Assembly (NCBI GenBank): GCA_018303005.1
Contig: JAGVYY010000031.1
Coordinates: forward strand, 24,994 to 88,993
Length of the DNA stretch: 64,000 nt
Direction: 5' to 3'
From: Candidatus Woesearchaeota archaeon
Lineage (GTDB): Archaea > Nanobdellota > Nanobdellia > SCGC-AAA011-G17 > GW2011-AR20
Made by a program: the position numbers and the translations under genes. This document shows positions 8,896 to 29,520 of this stretch, piece by piece; position 1 is the stretch's first letter; each line of letters starts with the position of its first letter. Below the pieces are notes generated by a model. It was given only the letters and a program-made list of their open reading frames with translations. It had not been told where the DNA came from and ran no database searches.

Positions 8896-9147
8896 ATGGA
8901 AGAAGTTACGATTTCATTAAGGGTAGATAAAGAAGTACATAAAAAAATGAAATTACATGATGAAATAAACTGGAGCGCCTTATTAAGGAAATCAATAATA
9001 AAAACAATTGAGGATTTTGACTTTATTGATAAAGAAAGAGCAGAAAAAGCAGCTTTAAGTATGGATAAATTGAGGAAAGTAAATGCATTTTCTTCTGGAA
9101 AAGAAAGTGTTCAGGTCATTAGAGAATGGAGAAACAGACGAAAATAA
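8896..9147 (+). CDS. vapB: VapB-like antitoxin
   Basis: 83 aa. It overlaps the downstream PIN gene by a few nucleotides. A paralog is at 13327-13551. Confidence 0.55.
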   Translation: MEEVTISLRVDKEVHKKMKLHDEINWSALLRKSIIKTIEDFDFIDKERAEKAALSMDKLRKVNAFSSGKESVQVIREWRNRRK

Positions 9148-9524
9148 TAGATGCATCAATAGTTGTAAAATGGTTTGTTGATGAAGAGAATAGTAAAAAG
9201 GCTTTAGATATAAGAAACGACCATATTAATGGGAACATAAAAATTATAGTACCAGATCTTACCTTCATAGAAGTGTTAAATGCTCTTAAATATAAAGGAA
9301 AAACAGAAGAAGATTTAAAAGAAGCAAATAAGGATTTATGGGACATTCAATTACAGATAATAAAAACAACTTCTTTCACTTTAAACAAAGCAATAGAAAT
9401 AGCATTAAAACATGACATAACACTATACGATGCGCTATACATATCATTAAGCACAATATATGGTTGTCCTTTAATAACAGCAGATAAAAAATTAGCAGAT
9501 CTCCCAAATGTTCAGCTTATCTAA
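9126..9524 (+). CDS. vapC: PIN-domain VapC toxin
   Basis: KIIDASIVVKWFVDEE...ITADKKL carries the PIN acidic residues. It is translationally coupled to the upstream antitoxin. Confidence 0.8.
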   Translation: MEKQTKIIDASIVVKWFVDEENSKKALDIRNDHINGNIKIIVPDLTFIEVLNALKYKGKTEEDLKEANKDLWDIQLQIIKTTSFTLNKAIEIALKHDITLYDALYISLSTIYGCPLITADKKLADLPNVQLI

Positions 9525-10576: not shown

Positions 10577-10780
10577 ATGCAAATAGAAGTAGCAAAAGAC
10601 ATCTCGGAAAATCTTGAAAGGGCTTCTAAAGAGCTAGGGCTAAATAAAAAAGAGTTAATAACAAGGGCAATAAAATTATACCTTCACAACATAAAAGAAT
10701 ATATAATCTTGAAAGAAGAACTTGAAGCTTGGGAAAGAGCTGGAACAGAGGATCTATTAGCCTTTGAAAATAAGATATGA
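10577..10780 (+). CDS. Ribbon-helix-helix (CopG/MazE-like) antitoxin
   Basis: 67 aa with ELITRAIKLYL. It overlaps the downstream toxin gene by 4 nt (ATGA). Confidence 0.5.
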   Translation: MQIEVAKDISENLERASKELGLNKKELITRAIKLYLHNIKEYIILKEELEAWERAGTEDLLAFENKI

Positions 10781-11103
10781 AAAAAGGTGAATTATGGGTT
10801 CTAGAACTTCCATTTCTAAATGGAAGAGAACAGAGAGGCACTCGACCGTGTTTAATCCTAGCAGATACGAAAACAGACATGATTGTTGTAATTCCATTAA
10901 CCTCAAATCTTCAAGCTTTAAGATTCCCACATACTGTAGAAATAAAAAAATCTGGAGAAAATAAGCTTGAAAAAGATTCAATAGCACTAATTTTTCAAAT
11001 TCAATCGTTAGATAAAAAGAGATTTATAAATAAAATCGGAGTTTTAGAAGATTATTATTTAAGCAAGGTAGATGAAGTACTAAAAAGATTAATTCAGTTA
11101 TAA
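10777..11103 (+). CDS. mazF: MazF/PemK-family toxin (endoribonuclease)
   Basis: GELWVLELPFLNGREQRGTRPCLILAD...VIPLTS is the PemK/MazF signature. Confidence 0.7.
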   Translation: MKKGELWVLELPFLNGREQRGTRPCLILADTKTDMIVVIPLTSNLQALRFPHTVEIKKSGENKLEKDSIALIFQIQSLDKKRFINKIGVLEDYYLSKVDEVLKRLIQL

Positions 11104-23450: not shown

Positions 23451-23643
23451 CTTATTATTCTTATTGCAAATGCATATAAGGTCATTTAAAAGAATTTTTA
23501 TATATAAAGTTATAAAATCTATCTTGTTGAATAACACTTTTTGTGCAAAACGAGTAGTTATTGTGCAGAATTGAATATTTGTGCAAAGCCTTCTCAATCC
23601 AAAGATTTATATACATGATGTATACACACAAAGTATACACAAA

Positions 23644-24003
23644 ATGGAAGATGTATTTAACACAACTATATTATGTAATAATTGTAATCAAGCAACAAAA
23701 AAATCTTATATTAATAAAGATGGCTTTAAGATAAGGACAATGCAGTGCGATTCATGCAAGAAAGAATGGTATCATCCCGGAGACATGCAGGATTATGAAA
23801 ATTTTTCAAGATTAAGAAATAAGTGTTTTCAGGTAAAATTAAGATATGTTGGAAATTCATACGCTATCTCAATCCCAAGAGAGATTATACAATTTGAAGA
23901 AGAGATGCAGCGTGAAATAAATGAGATGATTCAGATGTCTTTAGAAAGCCCTGAAAGAGTAAGCATAACATTTTCAAAAAAAATAAAACACATACTAAAA
24001 TAA
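23644..24003 (+). CDS. Zinc-ribbon plus AbrB/SpoVT-like swapped-hairpin domain protein
   Basis: CNNC...CDSC followed by VKLRYVGNSYAISIPREI. Confidence 0.4.
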   Translation: MEDVFNTTILCNNCNQATKKSYINKDGFKIRTMQCDSCKKEWYHPGDMQDYENFSRLRNKCFQVKLRYVGNSYAISIPREIIQFEEEMQREINEMIQMSLESPERVSITFSKKIKHILK

Positions 24004-24004
24004 A

Positions 24005-26440
24005 ATGACACAAGAAAAAGATGTAAGGCTAAAAGTAATGGAGGCTTTGCAGGAAGAAGCTTACAGAGGTACTGTTAGAATAGACTCTGAAACAATGCAT
24101 AAAATAGGAGTTCATCCAGGTGATGTTGTCTCAATAGAGGGTGGTAGAGAAACAGTTGGAATTGTAGACAGAGCATACCCAACAGATGTTGGTCAAGAGG
24201 TTATAAGGATGGATGGAATCCTAAGGAGAAACGCAAAAACAGGCATAGGCGAACATGTGAAAGTAAGAAAAGCAGATGTAAAAGAAGCACGCTCAATCAC
24301 AATTGCTCCTGCACAAAAAGGTGTAATGATCAGGGCAGATCCAGAGCTATTTAAAAGAGCACTTATAAACAGAGCAGTTGTTAAAGACGATATAATTGTT
24401 CCAAGCAATACGAGAAGGCGTAGAAGACAACTCCCGGATTCTCCATTGTTTGATAATGATGTGTTTTCAATATTCGAAGAGTCTTTTACAGGAGCATTTG
24501 GTTTGTCAGGATTAAGATTTATAGTAGTTCAAACAACACCTCTAAAAACACCAGTACTAATAACAGAATCAACTAATGTAGTCCTAAACCCAAAAGCAGT
24601 TGAAATATCAGATGAAAAGATACCAGAGGTTACTTACGAGGATATCGGGGGTTTGAAAGAAGAGATAAAGAAGATAAGGGAAATGGTTGAATTACCCCTA
24701 AAGCATCCAGAGATATTTGAGCGTTTAGGCATAGAACCTCCAAAAGGTGTTTTGCTTCATGGCCCTCCCGGAACAGGTAAAACTCTGTTAGCTAAAGCAG
24801 TAGCAAATGAAGTTGAGGCAAATTTTATGGTAGTGAATGGCCCTGAAATTCTTAATAAATTTTATGGAGAGTCAGAAAAAAAGATTCGCGACATATTTGA
24901 TGAAGCTGAAAAAAATTCACCAACAATAATATTCTTTGATGAGATTGATGCAATTGCTCCAAAAAGAGAAGAATCCTATGGTGAATTAGAAAAAAGAGTT
25001 GTAAGCCAATTGCTTGCACAAATGGATGGACTAAAATCAAGAGGCAAAGTAATTGTTGTAGCAGCAACTAATAGACCAAATTCAATAGATCCTGCATTAA
25101 GAAGACCGGGAAGATTTGACAGAGAAATTTCTATAGGTGTTCCAAATAAAAAAGGTCGCTTGAATATATTAAAAATTCACACAAGAAACATGCCTTTGGC
25201 AAATGATGTTGCATTATTAAAAATATCTGAAATAACACATGGTTTTGTTGGGGCTGATCTTTCTGCATTATGTAAGGAAGCAGCCATGAATGTTTTAAGA
25301 AGGATATTACCGGATTTAAAATTAGGGGAGAAAGAAGAAATTCCAAAAGAGATCTTAGATAAATTAGTTGTAACAGGTAAAGATTTTAAAGAGGCTTTAA
25401 AATTGGTAAGACCAAGTGCAATGAGAGAAGTTTTAGTAGAGACACCAAATATTAAATGGGAAGACATAGGGGGATTGGAAAAATTAAAGCAGGAATTAAA
25501 AGAAGCTGTTAATTGGCCTATTAAATATCCGGGAATGTTTAAAAGAATAGGAATAAGAGCACCAAAGGGAATTTTAATGTATGGTCCTCCCGGAACAGGT
25601 AAAACTCTGTTAGCTAAAGCAGTAGCAAATGAATCAGAAGCTAATTTTATCCTAGTCAAAGGCCCGGAATTATTGAATAAATTCGTAGGAGAAAGTGAAA
25701 AAGGTGTAAAAAAAGTGTTTGAGAGAGCAAGACAAGTCTCTCCATGCATAATTTTCTTCGATGAAATAGATGCACTTGCTCCAAGAAGAGGTCTTGATGC
25801 AGGAAATCAGGTTACAGAAAGAGTTGTTAATACTTTATTGGCTGAGATTGATGGTCTGGAAGAATTAAATGATGTTGTAGTCATTGCAGCAAGTAATAGG
25901 CCCGACATTCTTGATCCAGCATTATTAAGGCCCGGAAGATTTGATAGACTATTGTTAACACCACCACCTGAAAGAAAAGGCAGATTAGAAATTTTCAAGA
26001 TTCACACAAAGGGCATGCCAATAAAAATTAGTAAGGAAGATATAAAAGAAATTGAAGAACAGTTTAAATATCATAAGATAAATATTGCATCAAAAATGGC
26101 TTCTGACGAACCAGTAGATAATTCTGACATTAAAAAAGAAACAAAGATTAATTTTCAAGGTTTACCGGACCGAGATAAATTCCATTATTATCTGGCAGAG
26201 AAAACAGAAGGTTATGTCGGGGCTGATATAGAAGGTGTTTGTAATGAAGCAGGAATATTGGCATTAAGAGAAGATATTAAAGCAACAGAAGTGAGAAAAA
26301 AACATTTTGACGAAGCTCTAATAAAAGTAAAACCTTCAATTTCAAAAGAGGCAATGGATCATTATACTTCAATGGAAGAAACTTATTTGAGAAATGCCAA
26401 AGCAGGGCTTGCTAAAGAAATACCAAGTTATATGGGTTGA
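24005..26440 (+). CDS. cdc48: CDC48/VCP-like AAA+ ATPase with two AAA domains and a long C-terminal insertion
   Basis: N-domain followed by D1 [17 protein letters not shown] and D2 [17 protein letters not shown]. 811 aa. Confidence 0.9.
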
Positions 26441-26468
26441 TATTATCTACTCTAAAATAGTAAAAATA

Positions 26469-26485
26469 GAAAGGTTTATAAATAA
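26469..26485 (+). promoter_or_regulatory. BRE/TATA promoter motif GAAAGGTTTATAAATAA upstream of the DGR target gene
   Basis: It matches the recurring promoter consensus. Confidence 0.45.
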
Positions 26486-26528
26486 AGAAATTCTAAAATA
26501 ATTAGTTAAATTGGAGGTTTAAATAAAA

Positions 26529-27398
26529 ATGAAACTAACACAGGGACAACCACTAATTCAGGTAAATGTTCCATATATATTTCAGGCTCAATATGATGAG
26601 CCAGGAAGAGAAGCAGTTAAGAAAATATTATCAGATTATAAAAATACAAATATAAGGTCTTTCAACCAGTTTCTGGAAAAAGGGCCTATAAAGGGAAGCA
26701 ATCCTTATTTTAGATTTGCTTTGGGAAATGCTTATAGGGAATTAACAAATCAAGATGTTCTCCCAATAAATCCTAAAGAAAGTGAAATAGCATTGGCAAA
26801 TAATACTTTAACAAATCCAGGAGAAACTTATGAAGAATTAGGATTATTAGTTTACTCTAATAAAGGCTATAATCTAGTATTATGGCAGCATCTAAGAGAA
26901 ATAGCAAAAACACAATACAAAGATTCTGTAGACCTAGAAATACCATTTGTAGTTACAGGCTTAATGAAACCGGTAAAAGATGATAAATTTGAAGATGGTT
27001 TAAGATTAGACACGATAGATGGATTAACATTAATGTACAATGTTCCAATATTAGCTCAAAGAACTAACAGATTTGATTCAGTTAATAAATTTGATTCAGA
27101 AGATCCAGAGTTACAAAGAACAGGATTTCCTGGTAAATTAGGAGAAGGTAATAGAATTCTATTCACACAAAATAATGGTGTCCATAGGTTGATTCGTGGT
27201 GGCGAGGGCTTGTATCTGTATGCTAGATATGGGAATCTTGTTACCATGCATGACGATTGTAGGATACATCTCGTCGCAAAAAATTCCAGTAGAAATCTTG
27301 ATGAATTAGTGCAACAGCTAGAACAGGAAAAGTTAAAACAACAACAAGAGTTAGAAACAAGATATAACCAAGCTCTTGAAATTTTAAAGAAAAGATAA
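26529..27398 (+). CDS. DGR target (variable) protein. The C-terminal region resembles the C-type-lectin/FGE-like fold that carries DGR variable regions (HRLIRGGEG...YARYG...DDCR)
   Basis: A variable-region-like repeat at 27177-27250 pairs with a template repeat downstream. 289 aa with no signal peptide. Confidence 0.6.
   Translation: MKLTQGQPLIQVNVPYIFQAQYDEPGREAVKKILSDYKNTNIRSFNQFLEKGPIKGSNPYFRFALGNAYRELTNQDVLPINPKESEIALANNTLTNPGETYEELGLLVYSNKGYNLVLWQHLREIAKTQYKDSVDLEIPFVVTGLMKPVKDDKFEDGLRLDTIDGLTLMYNVPILAQRTNRFDSVNKFDSEDPELQRTGFPGKLGEGNRILFTQNNGVHRLIRGGEGLYLYARYGNLVTMHDDCRIHLVAKNSSRNLDELVQQLEQEKLKQQQELETRYNQALEILKKR
27177..27250 (+). repeat. DGR variable region (VR) inside the target gene
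   Basis: About 70-nt similarity to 27573-27646. 9 of 12 mismatches fall where the template copy has A. One 3-nt indel. Confidence 0.6.
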
Positions 27399-27572
27399 TC
27401 TTAAAAGATAATCTTAAATATACTCTTTCATTTCTATTTTTACCTAGGCTTAGTCTAGGCCACAGGCTTACCCATAGTGCTATTTAAAATAGCCATGAAA
27501 TACAACTGATTATCTTTTGATAGAGAGATAATAAAAAGCAGTGAATGATATAAGAGTGGGCAAGCTATATCT

Positions 27573-27646
27573 GGTGTCCATAGGTTGGTTCATAGTAGGA
27601 ACTTGAATCTGAATGCTAGGTATGAGAATCTTGTTAACTCGAAATT
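27573..27646 (+). repeat. DGR template region (TR), rich in AAC/AAT codons, flanked by an inverted repeat (CCTAGGCTTAGTCT at about 27446 and AGACTAAGCTAGG at about 27689)
   Basis: Read from the sequence. Coordinates may be off by 1 nt. Confidence 0.55.
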
Positions 27647-27710
27647 TTCAGTTAGAAAAGAAAACGAAAATGACACCGGTAGAATGACATAGACTAAGCT
27701 AGGTTTTATT

Positions 27711-28757
27711 ATGAAAACTTACACCAGTCTTTACTTAAATTTATTTGATATAGATAGATTATATTTAGCTTATAAAAAAGCAAAAAAAGGTAAATCAAAT
27801 AAAGATTATGTTTAAAAATTTCAGAGAGATTTAATGAATAATCTATCTGCATTAAGGTTAGAACTATTCTTTCATTCCTATAAACCAAAACCATTAAAGA
27901 CTTTCATTATCAGGGACCCTAAAACAAGAAAAATCAGTAAATCTGATTTCAGGGACAGAATTGTGCATCATGCCTTAATCAATATTCTAGAACCAATATT
28001 CGATAAAGTTTTTATTTATGATAGTTATGCAAATAGGATTGGTAAAGGAACTACAAAAGCAATAGAAAGATTAAAATTATTTATTATAAAAGTTACTAAG
28101 AATAATAAAAGAAATACTTATTGCCTGAAACCAGATATTAAACATTATTTTGAAACTGTTAATCATGAAGTTTTATTGAATCTTATTAAAAGAAAGATAA
28201 GATAACAGAATAATATGGTTAATAAAAATAAATTTAGAAAACTATTATTTTAAAGAAAAAAATAAAGGTATGCCTCTAGGGAATTTAACCTCCCAATTTT
28301 TTGCTAACGTTTACTTAAATGAGCTTATCAATATATTAAACATAAATTAAAAGTTAAATATTATATAAGGTATGTGGATGATTTTGTTATATTACATGAA
28401 AATAAAAATAAATTAAATTTTTATAAGAATCAAATAAAGGAATTTTTAAAAAACAATCTAAAGATTGAGCTTCATAAAGATAAATCTAAAATATTTTTCA
28501 TAAGAAAAGGAATAACATTTTTAGGATTTAGGCATTTTTATTTTTATACCATATTAAATAAAAATAAAAGAAAACATGTCAATAATAAGATTAAAGATAT
28601 AATTAAAGAGAGTAAAGAAATGGAAGATTATAAAAAATTAATGCAAAGATTTGAATCTATTTTATCACATTTAGAAATTGGAAATACATATTATTTAAGA
28701 AACAATTTTATAGTTAAGTTAAACAATAATATTAATATGTTAAACATAAAGCAGTAG
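27711..28757 (+). pseudogene. DGR-type reverse transcriptase, degraded. Motifs 0-7 are all present but split over at least 4 segments by three in-frame TAA codons and at least two frameshifts
   Basis: Motif 0 is LYLAYKKAKKGK. Motifs 1-3 lie in the ORF at 27834-28205. Motif 4 is GMPLGNLTSQFFANVYLNEL (DGR hallmark). Motif 5 is YIRYVDDFVIL (ORF 28374-28757). Confidence 0.75.
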
Positions 28758-28834
28758 TAGTCTAGCGGCAGGACAGGAGCTTCCCAATAATAAGAAAAAA
28801 GCTTCTAACCCGGGTTCAAATCCCGGCTACTGCA
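28750..28834 (+). tRNA. tRNA-Gly (anticodon CCC) with a 13-nt intron at the canonical 37/38 position
   Basis: Acceptor GCAGTAG/CTACTGC. Anticodon arm GGAGC-TTCCCAA-GCTTC after removing TAATAAGAAAAAA. T-arm CCGGG-TTCAAAT-CCCGG. Confidence 0.7.
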
Positions 28835-29520
28835 TCGATTAATTCTCTCCACTCTTCAAAATTTAAAGCATAAACCTTCTTATTTAAAAAATTTAGCTTA
28901 GGAATTTTTTCTTCACCATGTTTCTTGCTTAAACCATACAATTGACGGTGGGTATCTCTGATTGCGTTTCTTAATTTTTTATCGCTTTGTAAATAAATCT
29001 TCTTTATTATACTCTCTTTTTCATTCAGATTTCTTAACTTAATCCTAATAATTTCAGAAGTTACTTTCGGCATTGGATTAAATGCCTTCCTAGGTATAAT
29101 GTCTAATCTTTCAATCTCAAAAAATATATTCATCAACAATCCCAATAACTTCACGTTCATAAAATCTTTTGGAACACTAAAAACAGCCAATTTGAAATCG
29201 CTATTAACCAATATTCTCATTAGTCCTTCTATAATAGAGTAAGGCAAATTTCCGACAATTTTATCATATTCTAATCTATAAAAGTGCAGTATATTGTCAT
29301 TGATAATATCAAAATCAGGAAACTTATCTTTTAGATATTGGTATAACTTTATGTCAATTTCAATTACAGTGATCTTTCCGGTTTTCTTTATTAATTCCTC
29401 TGTTAAAGCACCTTTACCACCACCAATCTCAACTATATCTTCATTTTCTTTGATTTCCAGATAGTCAACAATCTTACATATCAAATCCCTATCAGTCATA
29501 AAATGCTGGTCAAATTTCAT
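28816..29520 (-). CDS. ksgA: 16S rRNA adenine dimethyltransferase (KsgA/Dim1)
   Basis: SAM motif VEIGGGKG and the GNLPY motif. Its 3' end overlaps the tRNA-Gly on the opposite strand. Confidence 0.8.
   Translation of the reverse strand: MKFDQHFMTDRDLICKIVDYLEIKENEDIVEIGGGKGALTEELIKKTGKITVIEIDIKLYQYLKDKFPDFDIINDNILHFYRLEYDKIVGNLPYSIIEGLMRILVNSDFKLAVFSVPKDFMNVKLLGLLMNIFFEIERLDIIPRKAFNPMPKVTSEIIRIKLRNLNEKESIIKKIYLQSDKKLRNAIRDTHRQLYGLSKKHGEEKIPKLNFLNKKVYALNFEEWRELIDAVAGI

Follow-up and report, generated by a model that had tools for sequence, protein, structure and literature searches.

DPANN archaea are well-known hosts of diversity-generating retroelements (DGRs). The hallmark of a DGR reverse transcriptase (RT) is a motif 4 of the form [LIV]GxxxSQ together with a YxDD catalytic motif, and the accessory protein Avd is present in about 74% of DGRs. 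The element of Bordetella phage BPP-1 has the order mtd-avd-TR-brt and is represented by structures of bRT, Avd and RNA (8ub7 series). Closer in host are the DGRs of DPANN and CPR genomes, namely the Nanoarchaeota AvpA element (PDB 5ioo; Handa et al. 2016, PMC5006420) and the 'CPR set' (Wu et al. 2018, PMC5758913), in which 90% of the elements belong to B3, one of the subtypes of architecture B, which includes avd. DGRs without avd have been described as well: they make up 26% of the elements of Wu et al. 2018, Lineage 3 being an example (PMC5758913), and surveys report inactive DGRs (Roux et al. 2021, PMC8144416). Finally, among the RNA motifs named RT by Weinberg et al. 2017 (PMC5737381), only RT-10 was tied to a DGR while any such role for the others was speculation.

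Here, we analysed a 64-kb stretch of DNA from a Candidatus Woesearchaeota genome (64,000 nucleotides; the window), in which positions 26529-28757 of the forward strand hold a cassette with the order target gene, structured RNA, template repeat (TR) and RT. This locus is very probably an avd-less DGR of the DPANN type that no longer works and is in decay. A reading made from the sequence alone had proposed a recently inactivated DGR, and this proposal is borne out by a DGR-type RT, by adenine-biased mismatches between the variable region (VR) and the TR, by lesions that recur across independent assemblies and by intact relatives that also lack avd. The rarity that it claimed for a decaying DPANN DGR was overstated because DPANN DGRs, avd-less DGRs and inactive DGRs are all documented already; the decayed copy by itself is ordinary gene decay in a known kind of element and adds little.

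The target gene (26529..27398, + strand) encodes a protein of 289 aa with a CLec-like fold, in line with the likeness first noticed in the VR peptide, and has the VR in its 3' part near the C-terminus, followed by a coiled-coil helix. Unlike the targets of the DPANN and CPR DGRs, this family has no Pfam domain, and the coiled coil after the VR is a further difference. The VR (27177..27248, + strand) is repeated downstream as the TR (27573..27641, + strand), which ends in ...AACTCG as in all relatives. We aligned the two copies in a codon-consistent manner, placing the 3-nt indel as a GGC insertion in the VR at 27201-27203, and the tabulation reproduced the sequence-only count: 12 mismatches, nine at TR adenines and three elsewhere (hypergeometric p=1.8e-4). 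Once the last TCG codon is counted, the adenine-site mismatches become 9/14 (p=8e-4). Every adenine-site mismatch falls in codon position 1 or 2. In five orthologous cassettes, 80-100% of the mismatches are adenine-specific (L004, 9/9; L014, 9/9; L016, 8/9; L031, 11/12; L030, 4/5), and the bias in the window (9/12) is weaker than this.

The RT pseudogene occupies 27711..28757 (+ strand). When repaired, it encodes 349 aa with a match to Pfam RVT_1 (E=1e-25), and the repaired frame contains both LGNLTSQ (GMPLGNLTSQFFANVYLNEL) and YVDD, as had been predicted. Its best PDB match is bRT of the Bordetella phage (8ub7; E=1.3e-39, residues 14-314 aligned), with retron-type and group II intron RTs at 1.5e-25 and weaker, and the alignment to bRT runs from end to end through both frameshift junctions. 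The RT is therefore DGR-type rather than group II intron or retron, an assignment made by motifs and similarity search. Unlike BPP-1, the element is chromosomal and in an archaeon rather than in a phage, and its RT is broken; pseudogenization likewise sets the window copy apart from the known DPANN and CPR elements.

Neither the window nor any of seven related cassettes has an ORF between the target gene and the RT, and none of ten small ORFs of the window has an Avd-like Pfam match, their matches being to PIN, MazF, PadR, CutA, prefoldin and similar families instead. The absence of avd noted at the outset thus holds for the cassette and for these ten ORFs; the cassettes across the whole lineage lack avd, and the intact relatives share the avd-less cassette architecture. 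In this respect the lineage differs from the CPR-set DGRs and resembles the avd-less DGRs of Wu et al. 2018, implying an Avd-independent mechanism.

As in BPP-1, the TR precedes the RT and a structured spacer lies between them. The place taken by avd in BPP-1 is occupied here by a structured RNA of ~130-190 nt, RT-16, which is found 5' of the TR. In the window, this RNA (Rfam RF03019; 27443..27573, + strand, immediately 5' of the TR) reaches the gathering score, although only at the borderline (50.3 versus 50 bits), while seven related DGR loci carry it at the corresponding position with scores of 62-94 bits, and it is present in all RT-bearing loci. The low score is not clearly a sign of decay because the same compact variant of RT-16 is found in the intact loci L031 and L032. 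Different from the description in its source, RT-16 abuts a TR in every locus here, and its 5' strand takes part in a pairing not covered by the Rfam model, with a partner that lies shortly before the start codon of the RT. The 5' arm of this long-range helix, CCTAGGCTTAGTCTA (27443..27457, + strand), pairs with 27690-27703, and the bipartite helix is retained through compensatory changes in 8/8 loci; we tabulated this covariation by hand, the MAFFT alignment of the whole DGR RNA being ragged at its ends. MFE folding recovers the helix as well, both for the window (z-score, -4.2) and for L004 (z-score, -5.4). What had been seen as an inverted repeat bracketing the TR is thus a covarying long-range helix, which encloses RT-16, the TR and the spacer and may serve to close the RNA. 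In the spacer (27642..27710, + strand), an A-rich insert is followed by an IMH*-like block (27670-27690) and then by the 3' arm of the helix (27690-27703); the spacer is conserved with L004, L031, L014 and L015. The A-rich insert, 23-41 nt long, separates the IMH*-like block from the TR, which is not the case in BPP-1. The RNA module as a whole (RT-16, TR and closing helix) is the same in the window, L008 and L012 and looks undamaged. This gives the orphan Rfam motif RT-16 a place: it makes up the 5' half of the template RNA of a DGR, which the covarying helix closes.

Directly 3' of the VR lies a degenerate block, ATGACGATTGTAGGATACAT (27250..27269, + strand), that, judging from its sequence, is a candidate IMH. 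In most intact relatives, a block of 12-14 nt after the VR has a counterpart downstream of the TR that differs from it at 0-2 positions; in every intact relative that aligned, the block is followed by a fixed GG (VR) versus AA (TR) difference, reminiscent of the fixed difference between IMH and IMH* in BPP-1. In the window, the candidate block has 4/13 mismatches, and GGGTG has turned into GGATA.

Related RTs contain a poly-G tract that varies in length between two samples of one organism (L014/L033, Hainich well H51), G9 giving an open frame and G10 a broken one. If this difference reflects real switching, the tract is a candidate on/off switch for targeted hypermutation; a literature search of limited scope returned nothing relevant on poly-G phase variation in DGR RTs. 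The RNA scaffold and this tract are more novel than the decay of the window element. One may speculate, with little expectation of being right, that in the avd-less DGRs of Woesearchaeota and Nanoarchaeota an RNA scaffold made of RT-16, a split IMH*-like block and the bipartite helix between the 5' end and the RT start replaces Avd, that some of these elements gate mutagenesis by slippage at the poly-G tract, and that the window element might be serviced in trans by a sister RT and not be truly dead.

Returning to a decaying DGR in the window, the VR is now frozen: its sequence is the same in the window, L008 and L009, three independent assemblies from different samples, and at this assembly level, at which rare VR variants or RT revertants would be missed, no ongoing diversification is seen. 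In contrast, the scaffold of the intact L031 breaks exactly within the VR, and two different VR versions flank the break. The GGC insertion at 27201-27203 is missing from the TR, from L001 and from 24/24 homologs. At four TR-adenine positions, the VRs of the window and L001 differ, which suggests that some retrohoming took place after two of the non-adenine changes had arisen and fits poorly with a single clean stop. These four differences are one reason to consider that the RT in cis is dead while another, undamaged DGR RT encoded elsewhere in the genome acts in trans on the RNA module, so that the element would be only partly retired. The undamaged RNA module would agree with such a service, as would a close strain that has an intact RT (P0027 in L032, also in L011) located at the same tRNA-Gly flank and nearly identical to the window RT over its C-terminal 60%. 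We nevertheless consider service in trans improbable: any retrohoming would erase the 3-nt insertion and the non-adenine mismatches, yet both are still there and are fixed across three assemblies; the recipient site that resembles an IMH has been eroded; and the L032-type RT serves a different RT-16/TR sequence. The sequence-only reading had raised a second RT or further VRs in the rest of the genome; our search covered the 64-kb window and found no other RT, VR or TR there.

The lesions themselves were mapped against L012, which is 97.8% identical and has an open frame in the compared region. This alignment identified one true in-frame TAA in the window RT at codon 35 (27813-27815), a 2-nt deletion at AAGAT^AAGATAAC (~28198/28199) and a 1-nt deletion after 28326. 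Of the damage described initially, the 1-nt deletion between motifs 4 and 5 was retained, while the three in-frame TAAs were reduced to one, the remaining TAAs being out of frame because of the 2-nt deletion, which had been missed. The proposed frameshift in an A7 run (28256-28262) was rejected since the run is unchanged in the open-frame relative and the repaired protein aligns continuously with bRT. In L012, which comes from another sample, the TAA is present but both frameshifts are missing; the sequence of L008, obtained from a third sample, shows the TAA together with the 2-nt deletion and stops short of the site of the 1-nt deletion. The TAA is thus found in three independent assemblies, two of which also share the 2-nt deletion, and the 1-nt deletion is seen in the window only. 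Because they recur in independent assemblies, the lesions are real, and assembly error is rejected for the TAA and the 2-nt deletion.

That the DGR is nonetheless active, with the lesions being sequencing or assembly errors or being bypassed by TAA readthrough and frameshifting, could be argued from the two deletions, which total 3 nt so that the frame is restored downstream, and from the length-variable poly-G tract, which indicates that frame switching occurs in this RT clade. We regard this as very improbable in view of the recurrence of the lesions. Moreover, the 128 nt between the two deletions encode motif 4 in a shifted frame only, and close relatives have an ordinary open frame at the lesion sites. 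TAA is the commonest stop in the window, ending 18/35 long ORFs including the target gene, and recoding of an ordinary stop is therefore no explanation. Finally, the VR is invariant and carries changes that are not of the DGR type.

A plain segmental duplication that lies next to what is left of an unrelated RT from a group II intron or retron, for which one could cite that the best-named NCBIfam match is the group II RT/maturase TIGR04416 (169 bits, under the cut-off of 300) and that several database sources label the homologs 'retron-type', is refuted to near certainty by bRT as the best solved relative, by the significant adenine bias that is confined to codon positions 1 and 2 and recurs in the five orthologous cassettes, by a retron RT model score of 53 bits against a cut-off of 235, and by an Rfam scan of 26400-29000, in which neither a group II ribozyme nor a retron ncRNA family appears at E<=1, the RNA adjoining the RT being RT-16 and the TR rather than msr/msd and the RT ORF having no flanking ribozyme domains.

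For the preferred reading of a DGR in decay, the relatives provide a series that leads from intact loci over the TAA-only variant L012 and the window, with TAA and frameshifts, to a strain without TR and RT. The last state is seen in L001-L003, which are 98% identical to the window over 23578-27310 and lack the TR and RT; about half of the loci in the family have no RT next to them. In intact relatives, the cassette runs from the target gene through RT-16, TR and spacer to the RT. We propose that its RNA of ~265-300 nt is closed by the long-range helix, that the RT makes a cDNA of the TR with errors at the adenines, and that this cDNA then replaces the VR inside the C-type-lectin-like ligand-binding fold. 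In the lineage of the window, the RT would first have gained the nonsense codon at position 35 and then the 2-nt and 1-nt deletions. With retrohoming lost, the VR would no longer be reset from the TR and would gather ordinary mutations, among them the 3-nt insertion and G-to-A changes where the template has a base other than adenine, while the IMH-like recipient site eroded, until it became fixed in the population, as it now appears to be. The non-coding RNA part would meanwhile have stayed intact, as its present appearance suggests, and the sister strain would be further along, having deleted the TR and RT. The value of the locus lies in this clean natural series inside one groundwater species complex, with an intact relative and nonsense-only, nonsense-plus-frameshift and fully deleted alleles, in which loss of the RT apparently comes first and is followed by freezing and drift of the VR, with the target gene being kept. 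Such a series could be useful to calibrate calls of DGR activity in metagenomes.

The element abuts an intron-containing tRNA, as the sequence-only reading had stated. This tRNA-Gly(CCC) (28751..28834, + strand) overlaps with its 5' end the RT stop codon TAG (28755-28757). It was missed by ARAGORN in default mode and found by Rfam (tRNA, 53.6 bits; 16 nt form an unaligned insert) and by the intron mode of ARAGORN, which gives a cloverleaf with a 13-nt intron at the position 37/38 characteristic of archaeal tRNAs (i(37,13)).

Altogether, our results identify the element in the window as a new, decayed DGR of a familiar type. It comprises a target-gene ORF on the forward strand (26529-27398, 289 aa), 312 nt of non-coding DNA and an RT-like region (27711-28757) that yields a 349-codon RT after repair, and the RT stop codon overlaps the first bases of tRNA-Gly(CCC) (28751-28834), the adjoining intron-containing tRNA of the sequence-only reading, whose 13-nt intron lies at position 37/38. 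The 3' part of the target ORF holds the VR (27177-27248, with 27177 at codon position 1), and the second copy, the TR, is at 27573-27641. Codon-by-codon alignment reproduced the 12 mismatches reported from sequence alone, nine where the TR has A and three where it does not (hypergeometric p=1.8e-4; 9/14 at TR A, p=8e-4, if the terminal TCG codon is counted), as well as the 3-nt indel, which we place as a GGC insertion at 27201-27203 because this position is shown by L001, a 98% identical strain, and by all 24 protein homologs. All nine A-site mismatches fall at codon positions 1 or 2. Given the strength of this bias, the adenine signal is real; chance does not account for it.

The repaired RT protein matches Pfam RVT_1, contains LGNLTSQ and YVDD, and aligns without a break across both repair junctions to the Bordetella phage DGR RT (8ub7; E=1.3e-39), with retron-type and group II intron RTs far behind (1.5e-25 and weaker), confirming the proposed DGR-type RT with its motif 4 and YVDD. 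Six-frame reading and comparison with relatives map three lesions: an in-frame TAA at codon 35 (27813-27815), a position occupied by Lys in several of the nearest homologs, a 2-nt deletion at about 28199 in AAGAT^AAGATAAC, and the loss of 1 nt after 28326; between the deletions, 128 nt lie in another frame and encode DNRIIWLIKINLENYYFKEKNKGMPLGNLTSQFFANVYLNEL. Only this one of the three in-frame TAAs described earlier stands, the other two and the supposed A7 frameshift being artefacts that arise when the wrong frame is followed. Recoding does not explain the RT TAA, since TAA is the commonest ordinary stop in the window and also terminates the target gene.

The window is part of a Candidatus Woesearchaeota MAG, and three independent assemblies from other samples each cover part of the locus. 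L008 (99.5% identical) shares the TAA and the 2-nt deletion and stops before the third lesion, L012 (97.8% identical) has the same TR and TAA without either deletion, and L009 covers the target gene only. The RT lesions are real, as the TAA recurs in L008 and L012 and the 2-nt deletion in L008. From this distribution we infer that the nonsense mutation came earliest and the deletions after it. With the lesion map so corrected, the earlier view of a recently inactivated DGR is supported.

Five RT-bearing relatives (L004, L014, L016, L030 and L031) share the layout of target, non-coding RNA, TR, spacer and RT, with targets 39-65% and RTs 51-76% identical and no ORF between target and RT; L015, outside the mismatch counts, has the same layout. 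Their VR/TR mismatches lie at TR adenines in 9/9, 9/9, 8/9, 4/5 and 11/12 cases, respectively. The sole hypervariable stretch in the alignment of target-family proteins is GVxRxxRxxxLxLxAxxxxLAxSxxxGRVH, to which the differences between two near-identical members (P0012 and P0013) are almost confined. In L031, the closest relative with an intact RT ORF, a scaffold N-gap lies exactly in the VR (L031:1656-1675) with differing VR versions on either side, consistent with the assembly break expected of a heterogeneous, actively diversifying VR. Judged from sequence, these loci make up a genuine DGR lineage. DGRs in DPANN and CPR organisms are already well documented, avd is missing from 26% of the DGRs in catalogues, a group thought by its describers to work through a mechanism independent of Avd (Wu et al. 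2018, PMC5758913), and many have been classed as inactive in population surveys (Roux et al. 2021, PMC8144416).

In all aligned intact relatives (L004, L014, L015, L016, L030 and L031 were compared), a second VR-TR block of 12-14 nt begins 1-2 nt past the ...TCG of the VR; it is contiguous with the VR on that side and lies 23-41 nt downstream of the ...TCG of the TR, beyond an A-rich insert, on the other. A fixed difference, GG (VR) versus AA (TR), follows in every case, and the pair looks like a split IMH/IMH* arrangement. The IMH-like block of the window (27250-27269 versus 27670-27690) has 4/13 mismatches, with GGGTG now GGATA. This degenerate block, a VR that does not vary among the window, L008 and L009, an extra VR codon missing from the TR, and three non-A mismatches, all TR G versus VR A and common to L001, are signs of decay outside the RT. 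One complication is that four TR-adenine sites separate the window VR from that of L001, so that a degree of retrohoming may have persisted once the first non-A changes were in place.

Taken whole, the target gene is fast-evolving. In the window-L001 comparison, neighboring cdc48 (24005-26440 versus L001:1477-3912) shows pS 0.004 and pN 0, as against pS 0.024 and pN 0.028 (pN/pS about 1.2) for target sequence outside the VR (26529-27398 versus L001:4001-4789), and the VR region holds 12 nonsynonymous differences and one synonymous one. The pattern fits selection that is relaxed or diversifying, perhaps combined with recombination. A 24-nt patch of the target (26652-26675) reads NIRSFNQFLEKGPIK in the window and L009 and is wholly unlike L008 and L001, which have the family consensus NVCLDTLNPN-EKGPIN. 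At 27065-27099, the window, L008 and L009 have an 18-nt tandem duplication that keeps the frame (NRFDSV/NKFDSE) and that L001 and all other family members lack.

Over 23578-27310, L001-L003 match the window at 98% identity, with cdc48 and the target gene both retained; the homology breaks off within the 3' end of the latter, and TR and RT are entirely missing. About half of the distinct target-family loci recovered have no adjoining RT, and as far as these loci tell, loss of the retroelement with retention of the target is evidently common in the family. The complete 829-kb DPANN genome of archaeon GW2011_AR20 (CP010426.1; L013/L021) also has a target-family member, with no RT within 4 kb.

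The same tRNA-Gly/ksgA flank adjoins another DGR in L011 and L032, both of them scaffolds with N runs; its 268-aa target is unrelated, its TR is AAC-rich and its 349-aa RT is intact. L032:686-2846 and L011:1-1327 have the RT 3' part, tRNA-Gly and downstream ksgA flank in common with window 27766-28903, the 3' ~60% of the RT being nearly identical, and 67 nt of the target upstream region are shared at 88% identity. From this near-identity beside an unrelated target at the same flank, DGR modules appear to be exchanged by recombination inside the RT gene, giving mosaics. Segment 28290-28390, where the window and L012 differ by ~20% between identical flanks, points the same way.

The RNA scaffold and the poly-G tract of related RTs are more novel leads than the decayed element. 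An RT-16 RNA (RF03019) lies immediately 5' of the TR at 27443-27573, scoring 50.3 bits, at the Rfam threshold, and 62-94 bits at the equivalent position in seven related loci (L004, L014, L015, L016, L030, L031 and L032); all RT-bearing loci of the lineage have it in this position, abutting the TR. The low score is no clear sign of damage because L031 and L032, both with intact RT ORFs, have the same compact form. The inverted repeat noted around the TR (27443-27457/27690-27703) proved to be part of a bipartite long-range helix, in which the ~20 nt immediately preceding the RT start codon pair with the RT-16 5' strand and which therefore encloses RT-16, TR and spacer. Both halves are kept in 8/8 loci despite differing, compensatory sequences (for example AGTCTA/TAGACT, GTCAAGGTC/GACCTTGAC, GCTTGGG/CCCAAGC and CTTGACATT/AATGTCAAG), and the helix is present in MFE folds of the window (z-score -4.2) and L004 (-5.4). 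Whereas Weinberg et al. 2017 (PMC5737381) linked RT-10 alone to a DGR and speculated on the other RT motifs, RT-16, an orphan motif in Rfam, is here tied directly to TRs; it thus gains a DGR context, and the covarying helix extends its Rfam model.

Outside the window, three related DGR RTs from genomes of ~32% GC have a 9-10-nt poly-G run just 5' of motif 4, where the window has an invariant A7. The run is G10 in L014:1654/L022:1654, with the frame broken, and G9 in L033:914/L034:914, with an open frame and an intact 342-aa RT; it is also G9 in L004:6730/L020:5730 and in L015:5733/L023:2011, L015 too being out of frame. The difference in length may be homopolymer assembly noise. The G10 and G9 loci, from two samples of one well, are 99.8% identical over 3.9 kb with this as the sole indel, and the VR/TR pair of the organism is still 9/9 A-specific. 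The tract is a candidate slipped-strand on/off switch for the DGR RT.

Elsewhere in the window, a PIN-domain protein (9126-9524) and a PemK/MazF-like toxin (10777-11103), with small ORFs upstream, suggest that this small DPANN genome holds toxin-antitoxin pairs of type II.
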